Below are positions 7,250-46,729 of a stretch of 46,729 nucleotides of DNA, one piece after another. The stretch spans positions 1 through 46,729 of the forward strand of contig CAZOPU010000001.1 of NCBI GenBank assembly GCA_964581965.1, written 5' to 3'. The position numbers and the translations under genes are program-made. The notes under the pieces were generated by a model. It was not told the DNA's origin. It made no database searches and saw nothing but the letters and a program-made list of their open reading frames with translations. Each line of letters opens with the position of its first letter. Within the stretch, counting starts at the first letter, position 1. The DNA comes from an uncultured Methanosarcinales archaeon (lineage in GTDB: Archaea > Nanobdellota > Nanobdellia > Woesearchaeales > 21-14-0-10-32-9).

Positions 7250-8929
7250 ATGGAAAGGTTCTTTAGGCCGCCAGAGGTGAGGAAGATAGCTTATTTCTCT
7301 ATGGAGATAGGGCTATTCAGCGATATGCCAACATACAGCGGAGGCCTCGGAATACTAGCTGGCGACACAATAAAAAGTGCGGCAGATCTTAGTGTTCCAA
7401 TGGTTGCTGTTTCTTTGATTCATGAAAAAGGATATTTTTCCCAAAAGATAAATGAAAAGGGAGAACAGATAGAAATTCCTAGCAATTGGAGAAAGGAAGA
7501 TTTCCTAGAGCCTCTGACTGCGGAAGTAATAGTATTAATTGAAGGAAGGGAAGTAAGGGTAAAGTGCTGGAGAAAAACAATAAAGGGAATAAAAGATTAT
7601 GAAGTCCCGATTTTATTTCTCGACACAAATGTTCCTGGAAACTCGGAGTATGACCGAACACTGACATCTCATCTTTACGGAGGAGATACTAAGTACAGGT
7701 TCTGCCAGGAGATGATATTAGGAATAGGTGGAACAAGGATGCTTAGAGCCTTGGGATACAGTGAAATAAAAAAATTCCACATGAATGAAGGACATGCATG
7801 CCTTCTTACTCTTGAGCTGCTTAAAGAAAGTTTTTTCCACGATCTTGAGGAAATAAAGAGAAGGTGTGTTTTTACTACGCACACACCAGTTCCCGCAGGT
7901 CACGACAGGTTTGATCCTGCAATGATACGTCAGCTTATGCCTGAATTCCCATTCAATGTTCCAGAATTGTACGATGAGGAGAAAAAAATAAACATGACTC
8001 TGGTGGGATTGCATTTCAGCAATTACATCAATGGAGTTGCAAAGAAACACGGTGAAGTATCTAGGGAGATGTTTCCTAATTATCCTATACATTCAATAAC
8101 AAACGGAGTCCATTCTGCAACATGGACATGCGATGCATTCCAGGAATTATTTGACAGGCACATTCCTGAATGGAGACTGGATTCATTCACGCTAAGATAT
8201 GCTGCAGGAATCCCTGCAAAAGAAGTTTATGATGCACATATGAAGGCAAAAAGAGTGCTCATAGATGAGATAAACAGGAAATACAATGAGAAATTTGACG
8301 CAGATACGCTTACAATAGGTTTTGCCAGAAGGGCTACTGCATACAAAAGACCAGATCTTATATTCAGGGATATAGAAAGGCTTAAAGAAATATCCAAGAA
8401 GGGAAAAATACAGTTTGTTTTTGCAGGAAAAGCCCACGCCAGGGATTTCAGCGGTAAAGAGATAATAAAGGAAATATTCTCTCTTAGAAATAAGCTTGGA
8501 GACAACATAAAATTAGTATACCTTGAAAATTATGAGATGAATCTTTCAAAAAAGATTGTTTCAGGAGTGGATATATGGCTTAATACTCCTATGAGACCCA
8601 GGGAAGCTTCAGGTACAAGCGGAATGAAGGCAGCACACAACGGCGTTCCCAATTTCAGCATTCTTGATGGCTGGTGGCTAGAGGGATGCATAGAAAATGT
8701 GACTGGCTGGGCGATAGGAGATGAAAAATCAGTTAAAGAAGAAAAAGTACAGGATGAATTGGATTCTAAGTCACTTTATGACAAGCTTGAAAATATAATT
8801 ATTCCAACTTATTACTTTGACAAAAATAAGCTTGCAGAAATAATGAAATCTGAAATAGTAATAAACGCATCTTTCTTCAATACCCACAGGATGGTAAGCC
8901 AGTACGTGCTAAAAGCCTACTTCCACTAA
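7250..8929 (+). CDS. glgP: Alpha-glucan (glycogen/maltodextrin) phosphorylase, GT35 short archaeal type
   Basis: IAYFSMEIG near the N-terminus, the PLP-lysine region EASGTSGMKAAHNG, and WLNTPMRPREASG. Track ORF starts at GTG 7229; ATG 7250 is chosen here and either is possible. Confidence 0.9.
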   Translation: MERFFRPPEVRKIAYFSMEIGLFSDMPTYSGGLGILAGDTIKSAADLSVPMVAVSLIHEKGYFSQKINEKGEQIEIPSNWRKEDFLEPLTAEVIVLIEGREVRVKCWRKTIKGIKDYEVPILFLDTNVPGNSEYDRTLTSHLYGGDTKYRFCQEMILGIGGTRMLRALGYSEIKKFHMNEGHACLLTLELLKESFFHDLEEIKRRCVFTTHTPVPAGHDRFDPAMIRQLMPEFPFNVPELYDEEKKINMTLVGLHFSNYINGVAKKHGEVSREMFPNYPIHSITNGVHSATWTCDAFQELFDRHIPEWRLDSFTLRYAAGIPAKEVYDAHMKAKRVLIDEINRKYNEKFDADTLTIGFARRATAYKRPDLIFRDIERLKEISKKGKIQFVFAGKAHARDFSGKEIIKEIFSLRNKLGDNIKLVYLENYEMNLSKKIVSGVDIWLNTPMRPREASGTSGMKAAHNGVPNFSILDGWWLEGCIENVTGWAIGDEKSVKEEKVQDELDSKSLYDKLENIIIPTYYFDKNKLAEIMKSEIVINASFFNTHRMVSQYVLKAYFH

Positions 8930-8978
8930 CCAGTACGCCCGTTAACGCTCTAAGGGTCTCGCTTTGCTCGAGCCCTTA
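8928..8978 (+). repeat. Solo copy of the dispersed core+hairpin element, abutting the glgP stop codon
   Basis: Core AACCAGTACGCCCGTTAACGC at 8928-8948; its first two A's are the last two bases of the glgP TAA. Hairpin TAAGGG(T)CTCG / CGAGCCCTTA has loop CTTTGCT. No flanking duplication detected. Confidence 0.6.
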
Positions 8979-9055
8979 ATTCTTTTCTTTTTGAAAGAGA
9001 TAAAATTTATAATGCGGAATAAATTCTTTAATTGTACAATCAGGAGGTTTATTTT

Positions 9056-9307: not shown

Positions 9308-9444
9308 TTTTATTTTGTTTAGAATATTGGTAGCGGGGAGAAGATTTTCACGGACCAGTACGCCCGTCCACGCCCTTTGTGATTTCGCCTTGCTCAATCA
9401 CATATTTTATTTTGTTTAGAATATTGGTAGCGGGGAGAAGATTT
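9308..9444 (+). mobile_element. 57-nt core+hairpin element flanked by perfect 40-nt direct repeats of the tRNA-iMet 3' end plus flank
   Basis: 9308-9347 and 9405-9444 are identical (TTTATTTTGTTTAGAATATTGGTAGCGGGGAGAAGATTT). The insert 9348-9404 carries the core GGACCAGTACGCCCGTCCACGCC and hairpin TGTGATT-TCGCCTTGCTC-AATCACA. Confidence 0.7.
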
Positions 9445-13549: not shown

Positions 13550-14077
13550 ATGCAAAAAAGAACCACATTTCAAATTCGTTTTTTTTACATCCTCGTGCTA
13601 TTTGTGATAGGAATAGTATTATATGTCTTAAAAATTAGAGCAGAAATAAATAATCCTATATATTATCTGCTGGTTGTTTTGTTCCTTGTCACATTCATTC
13701 TTCTAATAATTTCTTTATTTATACCAAAAGACCCAAATCATTTGCCTTACAGAAAATACTATTTATTGAACAACATTAACAAACCTTACTCAATATTTGT
13801 AATTCTAGTTATTTTGTCATTTTTAGTGCCCTTTATAATTCTGCAATTGCCGTTTAAATATTCAAATGAAATATCTGTATCTTTTTTCGAAATGCTAATA
13901 GGCACCTCGCTTTTATACTCGGGAATTTGTGCCGTAAAAAACAAAGAAATTCCGGGCTATATTGTTTATTCATGGATGCAGAATAAAAGCGCGGAGCGAT
14001 TCGGAACAATATTTATAATAATTGGAAGTTTGTTGGCTATTGGCGGATTAATAAAATTACTTCTTCTATTAGTATAA
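13550..14077 (+). CDS. Integral membrane protein (175 aa, about 5 TM), unknown function
   Basis: Consistently hydrophobic helices. No motif recognised. Confidence 0.5.
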   Translation: MQKRTTFQIRFFYILVLFVIGIVLYVLKIRAEINNPIYYLLVVLFLVTFILLIISLFIPKDPNHLPYRKYYLLNNINKPYSIFVILVILSFLVPFIILQLPFKYSNEISVSFFEMLIGTSLLYSGICAVKNKEIPGYIVYSWMQNKSAERFGTIFIIIGSLLAIGGLIKLLLLLV

Positions 14078-14082
14078 TAAAG

Positions 14083-14222
14083 AAAGCGCTGCGGTCCCGG
14101 ACATTCTCAACTGCGGTTTCGGTGCCCGTGCCTTAGCTTCGCTACGTTACGCTGCGGTCCCGGACTCGCTCACGCAATGCGTTCGGAGCATTTGCTTCGC
14201 AAATATTTGAACCGGGAATTCC
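14083..14222 (-). repeat. Array of partial tRNA-Ser 3'-end copies separated by GC-rich hairpin inserts
   Basis: AAAGCGCTGCGGTCCCGGA (14083-14101) and ACGCTGCGGTCCCGGA (14149-14164) copy the tRNA acceptor/T-stem 3' strand. ATTTGAACCGGGAATTCC (14205-14222) copies the T-loop/variable arm found at 14253-14270. Inserts contain GCCCGT and TTCGC-loop hairpins. Confidence 0.65.
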
Positions 14223-14239
14223 TATTTAAGATTAAAAAG

Positions 14240-14322
14240 CGCTGCGGCCCGGATTTGAACCGGGAATTCCTTACGGAACTAGCTCTCAAGGCTAGCGCAC
14301 TACCAGGTTATGCGACCACAGC
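14240..14322 (-). tRNA. tRNA-Ser (UGA)
   Basis: Reverse complement: acceptor GCUGUGG/CCGCAGC, D-arm GCAU..GUGC, anticodon stem CUAGC/GCUAG with loop CUUGAGA (anticodon UGA), long variable arm UUCCGUAAGGAAUU, T-arm CCCGG-UUCAAAU-CCGGG, discriminator G. CCA is not encoded. Confidence 0.85.
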
Positions 14323-14398
14323 ATACTTTTGATTGTTTTGTCTAATCTGCTTGGGCGCGACCACTAAGCTTTGCTTAGGGTGTATGCGACCACAGCAT
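14309..14398 (-). repeat. 58-nt insert flanked by 16-nt direct repeats comprising tRNA-Ser positions 1-14 plus 2 upstream nt
   Basis: TATGCGACCACAGCAT occurs at 14309-14324 and 14383-14398. The insert 14325-14382 contains hairpin CTAAGC-TTT-GCTTAG, which shares the GCTTTGCT apex with the dispersed element. Confidence 0.6.
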
Positions 14399-14520
14399 TT
14401 ATTCATTCTCGAAATATCTTTCTTTTTTTAAAATTAACGTAAAATTAACACATTTATAATAAAGTCGGATAAATTAATCCAATAATGTATTACAAAACGC
14501 TAAAAGAAGCCATACTCTGC

Positions 14521-18225: not shown

Positions 18226-18528
18226 TGTAGGGCAGGGAATGGCTGTCCCCTGAAGGAGGAAAGTCCGCCCACAGAAAAAGACCACTCGCCTGGCGAGATC
18301 CTGAAAAGGATGGCAACCACTCAGAAAAGAGACCCCTCATATGATGGAATGACGGTTGCGAAGGCTAAGGTGACTCGGCTGAGATAACCACCCGACTTTG
18401 CTTATGAGAATGGATGAAACTGTGAGCCCTGGTTTGTGCAACTCCGTTTGGAGGCTTAGTAGAATGCCATAAATGCCCATCCGCCTATCGGCTGGGGCAT
18501 ACAGAAGGTGGCTTACACCTGCTCTACA
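18226..18528 (+). ncRNA. rnpB: RNase P RNA (archaeal type A)
   Basis: CR-I GAGGAAAGUCCGCCC near the 5' end and CR-V ACAGAAGGUGGCUUAC near the 3' end. The P1 helix pairs UGUAGGGCAGG (18226-18236) with CCUGCUCUACA (18518-18528). GC-rich island of about 300 nt. Confidence 0.85.
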
Positions 18529-18658
18529 CTTTTTATTTCTATTTTTGTTTTTTCATACAAAACATAGGTTTAGGATTAGAAGACTGAGTGAAACGAATGT
18601 CGCCTAGGGCGTTAACGGGCATACTGGTTGGCGGTTCACCTGCTCTACACTTTTTATT
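18507..18658 (-). mobile_element. Core+hairpin element with duplication of the RNase P RNA 3' end
   Basis: CACCTGCTCTACACTTTTTATT occurs at 18516-18537 and again at 18637-18658. A weaker match extends about 9 nt upstream. The core GGCGTTAACGGGCATACTGGTT (18608-18629) lies immediately before the second copy. Confidence 0.65.
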
Positions 18659-18707
18659 CTGGAGCTTTACTAAAGTTAAATAATGTAAGAAATAAAAAAA
18701 TAAAAAA

Positions 18708-21379: not shown

Positions 21380-21736
21380 ATGTTTCCTGGGATGAATCCA
21401 AAGCAGATGCAGCAGGCAATGAGGCAGCTGGGAATAAAACAGGATGACATTGATGCCACAGAAGTAATAATAAGGCTCAAGGACAGGGAAATACTAATAA
21501 CAAACCCTTCCGTTCAGAGAATAAAGATGCAGGGACAGGAAAGTTATCAGGTTTCAGGAGATTCTAAGGAAAGGGCTCTCAGCTCCAGCGATGAAGAGGA
21601 TGTTATTGAGGTAACGGATGAAGATATAGAAACAGTTATGTCTCAAGCAGGATGCACAAAGGAAGAGGCTTTCAAGGCCCTTGAGGAAGCAGAAGGGGAT
21701 TTGGCTATGGCTGTTTTGTTGTTGACAAACAAGTGA
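21380..21736 (+). CDS. nac: Nascent polypeptide-associated complex protein (archaeal alpha-NAC)
   Basis: N-terminus MFPGMNPKQMQQAMRQLGI, a NAC beta-barrel domain, and a C-terminal UBA-like CTKEEAFKALEEAEGDLAMAVLLL. Confidence 0.9.
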   Translation: MFPGMNPKQMQQAMRQLGIKQDDIDATEVIIRLKDREILITNPSVQRIKMQGQESYQVSGDSKERALSSSDEEDVIEVTDEDIETVMSQAGCTKEEAFKALEEAEGDLAMAVLLLTNK

Positions 21737-21826
21737 GTTTTAGGGCTCGACTAAAGGGAGACTCTGAGGGTGTCAACGGGCGTACTGGTTGTGCAGTGGC
21801 TGTTTTGTTGTTGACAAACAAGTAAG
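21708..21826 (-). mobile_element. 59-nt core+hairpin element flanked by a 30-nt duplication of the nac 3' end (including the stop codon)
   Basis: TGGCTGTTTTGTTGTTGACAAACAAGTGAG (21708-21737) versus TGGCTGTTTTGTTGTTGACAAACAAGTAAG (21797-21826). The insert carries GGTGTCAACGGGCGTACTGGTT (21768-21790). Confidence 0.7.
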
Positions 21827-22799: not shown

Positions 22800-22929
22800 G
22801 TTCTTTTTTATTATGCTTTTTTTGTGTCTGTTAGTGGCTTGAGTGCGTAGCACGAAACCACTAAGGCGTTAACGGGCATACTGGTTAGAATGATTCTTTT
22901 GGGTTCTGATTAAGTTCTTTTTTATTATG
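22774..22929 (-). mobile_element. Core+hairpin element flanked by a 38-44-nt duplication of the 3' end of gene 22338-22799
   Basis: GATTCTTTTGGGTTCTGATTAAGTTCTTTTTTATTATG occurs at 22778-22815 and 22892-22929. The insert carries hairpin TTAGTGG...CCACTAA (22831-22864) and core GGCGTTAACGGGCATACTGGTT (22865-22886). Confidence 0.7.
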
Positions 22930-46686: not shown

Positions 46687-46729
46687 TAGCGGGGGTTGGA
46701 TTCGAACCAACGGCCTTTGGGTTATGAGC
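46687..46729 (-). tRNA. tRNA with CAU anticodon (Met or Ile2), truncated by the window edge
   Basis: The reverse complement gives ...GCUCAUAACCCAA-AGGCC-GUUGG-UUCGAAU-CCAAC-CCCCGCU-A. The 3' acceptor strand is identical to that of the initiator at 9425-9502. CCA is not encoded. The 5' half lies outside the window. Confidence 0.7.

Follow-up and report, generated by a model that had tools for sequence, protein, structure and literature searches.

The question raised by this locus is why an intact tRNA gene should lie between partial copies of itself. The gene is tRNA-Ser(UGA) on the minus strand of the window, i.e., the entire 46.7-kb contig analyzed here, which is part of an archaeal draft genome of 1.01 Mb with 35% GC in 58 contigs (G000 below; assembly completeness 90%). 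Both ARAGORN and Rfam call the gene (14239/14240–14322, 53.3 bits). It is the sole UGA isoacceptor of the assembly, in which ARAGORN finds 35 tRNA genes, many of them with introns, and four serine isoacceptors with one gene each. The fragments beside it are duplicated target segments that stem from at least three separate insertions of small non-coding hairpins into both ends of the gene, and the inserts match no mobile-DNA family that has been described. Small units insert, a terminal segment of the gene is duplicated, the gene stays intact, and such events recur at the same positions. It is very probable that the locus consists of the scars of serial small insertions. Taken as a whole, the serial insertion of small hairpins into a functional tRNA-Ser(UGA) is likely the best explanation.

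The direct repeats are exact. Positions 14383–14398 are identical to 14309–14324 at 16 of 16 nt (tRNA positions -2 to 14), and the two copies bracket the 58-nt 5' insert. On the 3' side, 14205–14223 repeats 14253–14271 (19/19) and 14150–14164 repeats 14087–14101 (15/15). The 15-nt copies, B2 and B3, read TCCGGGACCGCAGCG in the tRNA sense, one base more than the gene (TCCGGGCCGCAGCG), and run from the border of T-loop and T-stem to the discriminator +1. The longest direct repeat measures 19 nt, compared with a mean of 7.9 and a maximum of 14 in 1000 dinucleotide-preserving shuffles of 14060–14420, and not one of the 1000 shuffles reaches the observed counts of repeated 10-, 12-, 14- and 16-mers. 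A preliminary description, made by reading the letters, had listed the partial 3' copies downstream of the gene, the 16-nt repeat around a 58-nt insert, the extra base common to the two outer 3' fragments and hairpin loops with TTCGC in the 40–47-nt 3' inserts; all of these are present, and every coordinate in it is correct. The TTCGC loops belong to GCTTCGC on the plus strand (GCGAAGC in the tRNA sense), which occurs in both insert A and insert B. GCGAAGC is a DNA mini-hairpin motif of extraordinary stability (PMC13037366). Around it, positions 14190–14209 form a zig-zag of micro-palindromes, CAAAT-ATTTG-C-GAA-G-CAAAT, in which the end of the T-loop appears direct, inverted and direct again. 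The positions of all features are given in Table 1.

Table 1. Features of the tRNA-Ser(UGA) locus, in the order in which the gene is read
Feature	Position	Strand	Basis or remark
TATA-like promoter box (TTAATTTTAAAAAAA)	14423–14437	-	ends 24 nt ahead of the 5' fragment
5' fragment X' (ATGCTGTGGTCGCATA), exact copy of tRNA positions -2 to 14	14383–14398	-	repeat search, 100%
5' insert, whole, 58 nt	14325–14382	-	between two 16-nt copies
Cap hairpin of the 5' insert (CACCCTAAGCAAAGCTTAGTGGT)	14360–14382	-	homology to G001, covariation, fold
Decayed inverted copy of the 5' fragment (CGCGCCCAAGCAG; exact complement would be GCGACCACAGCA)	14347–14359	-	pairs with X'
A-rich tail of the 5' insert (ATTAGACAAAACAATCAAAAGT)	14325–14346	-	unalignable between species
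Intact tRNA-Ser(UGA), class II, long variable arm, intronless	14239–14322	-	ARAGORN and Rfam
T5-containing spacer (TTTTTAATCTTAAAT) directly 3' of the gene	14224–14238	-	probable terminator, arrived with the insert
Fragment A2 (AGGAATTCCCGGTTCAAAT), direct and exact repeat of the 3' side of the variable arm, the 5' strand of the T-stem and the T-loop	14205–14223	-	repeat search, 100%
Insert A, 40 nt	14165–14204	-	in the T-loop of the dead copy A2...B2
GCGAAGC mini-hairpin of insert A (ATTTGCGAAGCAAAT)	14190–14204	-	
Tandem-G.A cap hairpin of insert A	14165–14189	-	
Fragment B2 (TCCGGGACCGCAGCG): T-stem 3' strand, one extra A, acceptor 3' strand, discriminator	14150–14164	-	
Insert B, 47–48 nt	14102–14149	-	homologous to the trailers of tRNA-Ser(CGA) and tRNA-Ser(GGA)
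Parts of insert B: GCGAAGC mini-hairpin, left arm CACGGGCA, cap CCGAAACCGCAGTTGAG, linker AATG	14102–14149	-	
Fragment B3, identical to B2	14087–14101	-	followed by the ancestral T-rich trailer, 14076–14086

The inserts recur at other tRNA genes and in other species. Relatives are represented by one genome per species, and several of the comparisons rest on a handful of non-independent loci; G001, G002 and G006 are sister species of G000, G003 and G007 are of the same genus, and G059 is of a different family. Insert B is 87–92% identical to the sequence directly behind tRNA-Ser(CGA) (contig C11) and tRNA-Ser(GGA) (C18) of G000. At both of these genes an insert of 46–47 nt lies between copies of TCCGGGTCACGGCGT, which are the last 15 nt of the gene itself, and a terminator is found only behind the second copy. 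The module is kept by three of the four tRNA-Ser genes of G000, each with 15-nt repeats, and is absent at tRNA-Ser(GCU). Related units are found behind tRNA-Ser genes of G001 and G002, and one G002 gene has three nested 3' fragments. Insert A is built like insert B, with the GCGAAGC mini-hairpin, a tandem-G.A hairpin and a TGAG...G linker. The cap CCGAAAYNNYAGTTGAG is rare and is found in two of the 201 genomes of the order sample, G000 and G059. In G059 it follows two tRNA-Leu genes, and at one of them it is doubly nested among three copies of CTGTCGGCCGCA (12-nt repeats). At the tRNA-Leu(TAG) locus of G059 that has two nested cap units (C48, 26860–27460), the first unit arrived with about 52 duplicated nt, 40 of them from the trailer. 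An A/T-rich tail beside a gene can thus have diverged from a copy of the former trailer.

The family of the 5' insert is present after position 14 of six tRNA-Ser genes, three in G001, two in G002 and one in G006, and most of the fragments at these genes match their own gene. The first 27 nt of the 5' insert (the cap and the next 4 nt) are identical to the insert at a different tRNA-Ser gene of G001, and the tails are unalignable; the comparison with contig C17 of G001 gives 97% identity over query positions 32–69. A scan of metagenome contigs for strain-level relatives returned a single contig, which matches the species of G002. With all insert types counted, end duplications are found at 8–10 of the 35 tRNA genes of G000. 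Their inner border is at the T-loop or the D-loop and the outer border is mostly a few bases from the gene end. Further 3'-end copies of 12–16 nt are located 35–47 nt downstream of tRNA-Glu(UUC), tRNA-Ile(UAU) and tRNA-Arg(CCU) (G000 C32, 7600–8130, and C19, 650–765), preceded by short hairpins in which tandem G.A pairs enclose a tetraloop (GGAGCGACAGCGAC, GGAGCCGTAAGGCGAC).

Filled and empty sites show that these are insertions. In G009, TGCTGCGGTCGCATAACC is followed by a 71-nt insert and then by TGCTGCGGTCGCATAACC again, an 18-nt repeat, and the congener G012 has a single copy and no insert; the flanks are syntenic, with the same upstream (AGCGAAACTTTTG) and downstream sequence. In G003 and G007, and in other genera, tRNA-Ser(UGA) has a plain promoter before it and a T-tract directly after it. 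The orthologues of G000 and G001 have four differences in the acceptor (GCTGTGG vs GCCACAG), yet each 5' fragment is equal to its own gene. There is therefore no shared ancestral scar, and the same site was hit independently; a single ancestral insertion common to G000 and G001 is ruled out. Gene conversion from the tRNA-Ser paralogues was also rejected as the source of the 5' unit, as both copies of the acceptor segment read GCTGTGG and those of the paralogues read GCCGTGA. The insertion at C17 of G001 and C1 of G002 is common by descent, as seen in the similar tails. One fragment of this pair is intact and the other has three mismatches, as expected of a decaying scar. The preliminary description had proposed repeated insertion and duplication by the same or a related element. 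The homologues and the filled and empty pair uphold insertion and duplication; the inserts are not copies of the CCAGTAYGCCCGT family, as described below.

The events at this locus may be reconstructed as follows. On the 5' side, one 58-nt element would have entered the D-loop after position 14, by which positions -2 to 14 became double. On the 3' side, two elements of the same family, inserts A and B, would have entered the segment between T-loop and 3' end, each leaving a 15-nt outer copy, and the gene-proximal element would also have brought the T5 tract. The ancestral trailer CTTTCTTTATT, common to G000 and G001, stands 3' of the last fragment, B3. Insert B may have come first and the A unit later, at the copy next to the gene; the extra base would then derive from the target mimic of the elements themselves. 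Or the A unit may have come first, followed by a one-base insertion in the displaced fragment and by the entry of insert B there. Insertion into an already displaced fragment does happen, as seen at the tRNA-Leu locus of G059.

The fragments are scars and are not used in building a tRNA. A custom scan for the archaeal splice motif, the bulge-helix-bulge (BHB; a 4-bp helix between two 3-nt bulges, with flanking helices), recovers known introns of G000 in tRNA-Ser(CGA), tRNA-Ser(GCU), tRNA-Trp, tRNA-Asp and tRNA-Glu. In the tRNA-Ser(UGA) locus the same scan reveals no BHB that would restore a tRNA. The only candidate with the tRNA-restoring spacing of 74 nt has a central helix of four G.U pairs, and the remaining candidates yield products that are not tRNAs. 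Tools for tRNA finding give one intact tRNA at the locus, and Rfam at permissive thresholds (14040–14440) adds two chance-level matches beyond it. B2 and B3 also do not fit a cloverleaf, having the extra base between the T-stem and the acceptor strand. A box of the TTTATAAA type precedes most tRNA genes of G000 and ends about 24–28 nt 5' of the mature end. At tRNA-Ser(UGA) and tRNA-Gln(CTG) it stands before the fragment copy, with none directly before the intact gene. This is predicted by an insertion into a transcribed gene that duplicates its first bases. Because the promoter is kept in front of the outer 5' copy, tRNA-Ser(UGA) must presumably be made with a leader of about 74 nt that is removed by RNase P. 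The T5 tract directly after the gene probably terminates transcription, and the 3' fragments are thus probably poorly transcribed.

The units have a common plan. Each consists, in order, of a copy of the target, a conserved cap hairpin, an inverted and partial copy of the target, an A/T-rich remainder and a second copy of the target, and the 3' units mirror the 5' unit. This recurrent order is new. The ends of the inserts are unrelated, i.e., there are no terminal inverted repeats. Through the inverted target copy the outer target copy is locked in a hairpin. The 5' fragment and its insert form a single long hairpin with a folding energy of -20.6 kcal/mol and z = -3.15, and one in 200 shuffles folds equally well. 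In this hairpin X' pairs across the cap with CGCGCCCAAGCAG, its own decayed inverted copy. The cap stem of the 5' family covaries, with compensatory changes in four of nine pairs. At tRNA-Ser(UGA) of G001 the corresponding segment GCGACTGTG is the exact complement of CACAGTCGC of the gene, and in four of seven loci the inverted segment is the best match to its own fragment. The inverted segment at C17 of G001 matches the G000-type sequence instead, and such a segment can therefore be carried along.

Pairing on the 3' side joins the segment that precedes the cap to the linker and the start of the outer fragment. This outer stem covaries with the target, and there are double changes at five pairs between tRNA-Ser and tRNA-Leu targets. 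Its G.U pairs are present on the gene-sense strand only, at one pair in 5 of 11 sequences and at another in all 11. In the stretch from A2 through insert A to B2, the T-stem 5' strand of A2 serves as the inverted arm and pairs with B2, with two small hairpins in the loop. The earlier reading of this stretch as a tRNA 3' half with a 40-nt insert in the T-loop agrees with the fold.

The main repeat family of the window provides a contrast. It consists of a core (CCAGTAYGCCCGTYNACRCC / CCAGTAYGCCCGT) and a variable hairpin and has 13 copies in the genome, none of them at 14083–14398 (nhmmer, 12-copy profile). Two motifs had been taken as signs of this family in the locus, GCCCGTG in a 3' insert and the apex AAGCAAAGCTT in the 5' insert. 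GCCCGTG occurs once with 0.83 expected by chance and AAGCAAAGCTT three times, one mismatch allowed, with 2.6 expected. At such chance frequencies they are no evidence of kinship. The inserts belong to 'cap hairpin' families that are specific to tRNA ends; they share the architecture of the main family and are not copies of it. Eight of the 13 main-family copies are flanked by repeats of 14–67 nt, derived from the ends of tRNA-Met, tRNA-Trp, tRNA-Gln, RNase P RNA and four protein genes, and the hairpin side always faces the gene body. No distant partners at the kb scale were found for the copies without nearby repeats. One copy is inside the intron of tRNA-Ser(CGA).

In 11 of the 13 copies the strand that reads hairpin-GGCGTTAACGGGCRTACTGG folds 4–15 kcal/mol better than its complement (e.g., 8921–8984, 21731–21795 and 22827–22892). 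The copy in the tRNA intron, where the opposite strand is the transcribed one, is no exception, and for that reason the structure seems to serve the element and not a host transcript. At 9308–9444 the 3' end of tRNA-Met(CAT) and 20 nt of trailer are duplicated exactly (40 nt) around a 57-nt main-family copy. At 18518–18660 the last ~12 nt of the archaeal RNase P RNA (18227–18527) and the T-tract are duplicated, and these 22-nt repeats bracket a stretch of 99 nt that holds another main-family copy.

The manner of movement is a matter for tentative proposals. The most likely of the routes considered, though itself less probable than not, is that the element moves as a folded single strand. In such a route, the stem of the element would imitate the gene end, a host recombinase would exchange one strand with the gene, and replication would complete the integration. 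The product order target, cap, inverted target, rest, target would be expected from this exchange. The repeat would represent pre-existing similarity and not fill-in, and the last bases of the gene and its terminator would be supplied by the element. In that case the additional base in B2 and B3 could have been carried by the element, in place of a mutation followed by insertion into the fragment. Competing routes of duplication are a long staggered cut with fill-in and copy-choice replication. It is possible, with considerable reservation, that these inserts represent an undescribed class of protein-less elements of 45–75 nt. These would travel in folded single-stranded form, with stems that mimic the ends of genes for stable RNAs, and would draw on a recombinase or repair enzyme of the host. 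The further suggestion that they rewrite tRNA gene ends, with new leaders, terminator-bearing trailers and replaced 3' ends, is just as tentative. Also doubtful, though it may be considered, is that they supply raw material for non-canonical tRNA introns and, after rearrangement, for the split tRNA genes of DPANN archaea.

As for candidate enzymes, G000 has four tyrosine recombinase genes, three of which are non-Xer. Of these three, the one on C11 is separated from a tRNA gene by a few hundred bases and the one on C13 by about 1.3 kb. The domain RVT_1 was not found in G000, G005 or G009, all of which bear inserts, and is present in 10 of 41 relatives; the presence of reverse transcriptase does not track the inserts. 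Cas1 (PF01867) has no match in G000 and none in 41 genomes, in a search run with positive controls. TnpA(Y1) and the TnpB-type domain were not found in G000, which is 90% complete, and other transposase families were not searched.

Several points weigh against this interpretation. Comparison of genome sequences has caught no element in movement. The inverted copy is not the best match to its own fragment in three of the seven loci. The role of A2 is ambiguous: it may belong to the inserted unit or represent an older duplicate of 33 nt, split later by insert A. Any link of the elements to the tyrosine recombinases is putative. A dedicated enzyme could have been missed in a 90%-complete assembly, or could be encoded by a host or a virus. 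The main family has perfect 20–67-nt repeats at the ends of protein genes and no inverted target copy, and a pre-formed hairpin mimic cannot explain it. Unless there are two mechanisms, the folded-strand model is wrong; the main family is better accounted for by a long staggered cut or by copy-choice replication than by the folded-strand route.

Among explanations that dispense with small mobile units, copy-choice replication needs no dedicated element or enzyme. By template switching or fold-back at hairpin-prone gene ends, the polymerase would copy the gene end, jump to an abundant hairpin template, at times copy back along the complementary strand, and re-enter upstream, leaving a direct duplication, an inverted piece and a templated insert. 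The spread of repeat lengths (12–67 nt) and of tails (0–40 nt), the micro-palindromes at 14190–14209, the inverted target copies that adjoin the caps and the great stability of the GCGAAGC mini-hairpin (PMC13037366) are all consistent with it. So are the negative searches of G000 for transposase, reverse transcriptase and Cas1, with TnpA(Y1) and TnpB the only transposase types searched. It leaves unexplained, however, why the same conserved caps should be the donors at many loci and in different archaeal families, why the insertion points are so precise in independent events (after position 14, or at the border of T-loop and T-stem), and why the orientation relative to the gene body is constant. 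This explanation is considered unlikely. The repeats could also be attachment-site duplicates of larger plasmids or viruses with an integrase, mostly deleted later in a CIME-like manner, with the caps as arm-proximal element ends. Williams is said to have found in 2002 that integrases which target tRNA genes have identity blocks beginning in the T-loop and extending as far as the end of the gene, and the 3' repeats here have the same span. The non-Xer recombinases of G000, two near tRNA genes (C11, C13), and the tRNA-Gln(CTG) locus, where 1.3 kb with an open reading frame (ORF) precedes a 17-nt 3' fragment, point the same way, and in Caldiarchaeum a tRNA-Thr 5' fragment was left by a recombinase element of 1.8 kb (PMC3293823). 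Yet no recombinase lies between the repeats at any of about 25 loci examined, the inserts at this locus measure 40, 47 and 58 nt (about 75 nt if spacer and A2 are counted in) and not kilobases, and the G009/G012 pair differs by exactly 71 nt and the 18-nt repeat. The same units of 45–75 nt are met again, undamaged, at many sites, integrases do not typically cause 5'-end duplications with the promoter left outside, and repeated near-complete deletions with identical endpoints are themselves not to be expected. An origin from large integrated elements is accordingly rated as improbable.

A function for the fragments, either as pieces of a split, permuted or multiply interrupted tRNA-Ser or as leader and trailer modules for maturation, would have precedents, as split, permuted and multi-intron tRNAs occur in Archaea (PMC3218864). 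The resemblance of A2, insert A and B2 to a tRNA 3' half with a T-loop insert, the insert-B module at three of the four tRNA-Ser genes and the G.U pairs on the transcribed strand could be read in this way. Against it are the intact gene, the extra base in B2 and B3, the T5 tract between the gene and the 3' fragments, the promoter before the 5' fragment, and a splice scan that finds true G000 introns and no tRNA-restoring BHB here. The modules are also absent in G003 and G007 of the same genus and at tRNA-Ser(GCU), and the cap is present in only 2 of the 201 genomes. A functional role is very improbable, and the preliminary description had likewise placed split or intron-containing precursors behind insertion. 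Finally, a metagenome-assembled genome in 58 contigs might contain artefacts of assembly. The repeats of 15–19 nt are shorter than assembly k-mers, and the same architecture is found in the independently assembled G001, G002, G005, G006, G009 and G059 and in a metagenome contig from JGI, which makes an artefact hardly credible.

Serial insertion of small hairpin units can be compared with known systems, although full-text searches of the literature gave no description of such elements, the nearest cases being integrase-driven tRNA disruption, casposons, MITEs (miniature transposable elements with inverted repeats) and organellar hairpin elements. The filamentous phage CTX integrates a folded strand, attP(+), through XerCD at dif, and integron cassettes do so at attC through IntI. 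The order predicted for a single strand exchange with a hairpin that mimics its target, namely target, loop, inverted target, rest and target, is the order found here. Strand-specific structure is a further likeness (here G.U and G.A pairs on one strand), and tyrosine recombinases are present in G000. The differences are that the elements here are only 60–75 nt and geneless and that they target tRNA gene ends and not dif or attI; moreover, the main family of G000 has no inverted copy, and a single-stranded circle and its enzyme would be putative here. Integration of archaeal plasmids and viruses into tRNA genes by SSV- and pNOB8-type integrases (PMC3293823) also leaves a displaced fragment beside a reconstituted gene, with 3' repeats from the T-loop to the gene end and nested fragments from serial events. 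The present inserts differ in being 40–75 nt long without an integrase and in showing 5'-end duplications and conserved cap hairpins together with inverted copies of the target.

Casposons and CRISPR spacer integration (PMC5137440) are similar in that a target duplication of 14–15 bp lies beside the T-loop region of a tRNA gene, 15 bp in the case of the A. boonei casposon (PMC5137440), and in array-like growth. In contrast, the inserts here have no terminal inverted repeats, no Cas1 was found in G000 or in 40 relatives, and the repeat is the last 14 nt of the tRNA itself and not flanking sequence. MITEs and other small prokaryotic repeats (PMC10969869, PMC11602168) are small, non-coding, multi-copy, structured, intergenic and dependent on a function provided in trans, as are the inserts. 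They differ from the inserts, which lack terminal inverted repeats and a short fixed duplication (15–19 nt here, 12–67 nt genome-wide) and show strict targeting of gene ends in a fixed orientation. No parent insertion sequence was found for the inserts, TnpA(Y1) and TnpB having been searched and other transposase families not. Palindromic elements derived from IS200/IS605 (PATE) differ as well, in that there is no Y1_Tnp in G000 and duplications are always present here. An A-rich tail and variable repeats, as in retroposition of the short interspersed element (SINE) type by target-primed reverse transcription, are observed; RVT_1 was not found in G000, G005 or G009 and is present in 10 of 41 relatives.

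The GC-rich hairpins of organelles and symbionts, such as the GC clusters of yeast mitochondria and the repetitive hairpin elements (RHEs) of sponge mitochondria (PMC2800124), are also found in small AT-rich genomes, often by tRNA genes, and are protein-less. They have no duplications or ones of 2–3 nt, and no gene-end copying. BHB introns and split or permuted tRNAs (PMC3218864, PMC3978253) are similar in that pieces of tRNA are set apart by structured inserts in the D-loop or T-loop, and a main-family member is located within the tRNA-Ser(CGA) intron. Here, unlike in those genes, there is no BHB at the junctions, an intact gene stands alongside, and the fragments are not assembled into a tRNA.

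About a quarter to a third of the tRNA genes in this 1-Mb genome have an end rewritten by inserts, and all of them stay intact. This represents a gentle yet pervasive remodelling of essential genes in reduced genomes. It bears on the origin of archaeal tRNA leaders, trailers, introns at odd positions and detached tRNA fragments, and on the question whether very small symbiotic archaea harbour mobile DNA which does without any genes of its own. Annotation of tRNAs is misled by such fragments. The recurrent unit order provides a concrete and testable model of folded-strand recombination.

The ORFs flanking the locus have no Pfam match, and the next ORF encodes a tRNA synthetase of the aspartyl/asparaginyl type. 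At gathering thresholds Rfam finds in the window the full tRNA-Met and tRNA-Ser, a partial tRNA at the window end (46687–46729) and RNase P RNA only. Elsewhere in G000, a tyrosine recombinase (313-aa frame; C11, 26584–28891) is about 200 nt downstream of tRNA-Val(TAC). The order on this contig is tRNA-Ser(CGA) with its insert-B unit, tRNA-Val(TAC) and the recombinase, and the contig ends in or just after the recombinase gene. This locus may represent a conventional integrated element. Reverse transcriptase genes with frames of 330–620 aa are present in five of seven other genomes of the genus, e.g., G001 C60, 7908–8525, and G002 C2, 59546–60163. The tRNA-Gln(CTG) gene of G000 (C42, 4355–5700) has a 14-nt 5' fragment with a main-family copy. 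It is followed by 1.3 kb that contains an ORF of 388 aa, with an acyltransferase-like HxxxxD motif recognized by eye, then a GCGAAGC mini-hairpin and the 17-nt copy of its 3' end. The 1.3-kb stretch could be a cargo-carrying or secondarily filled version of a like insertion.

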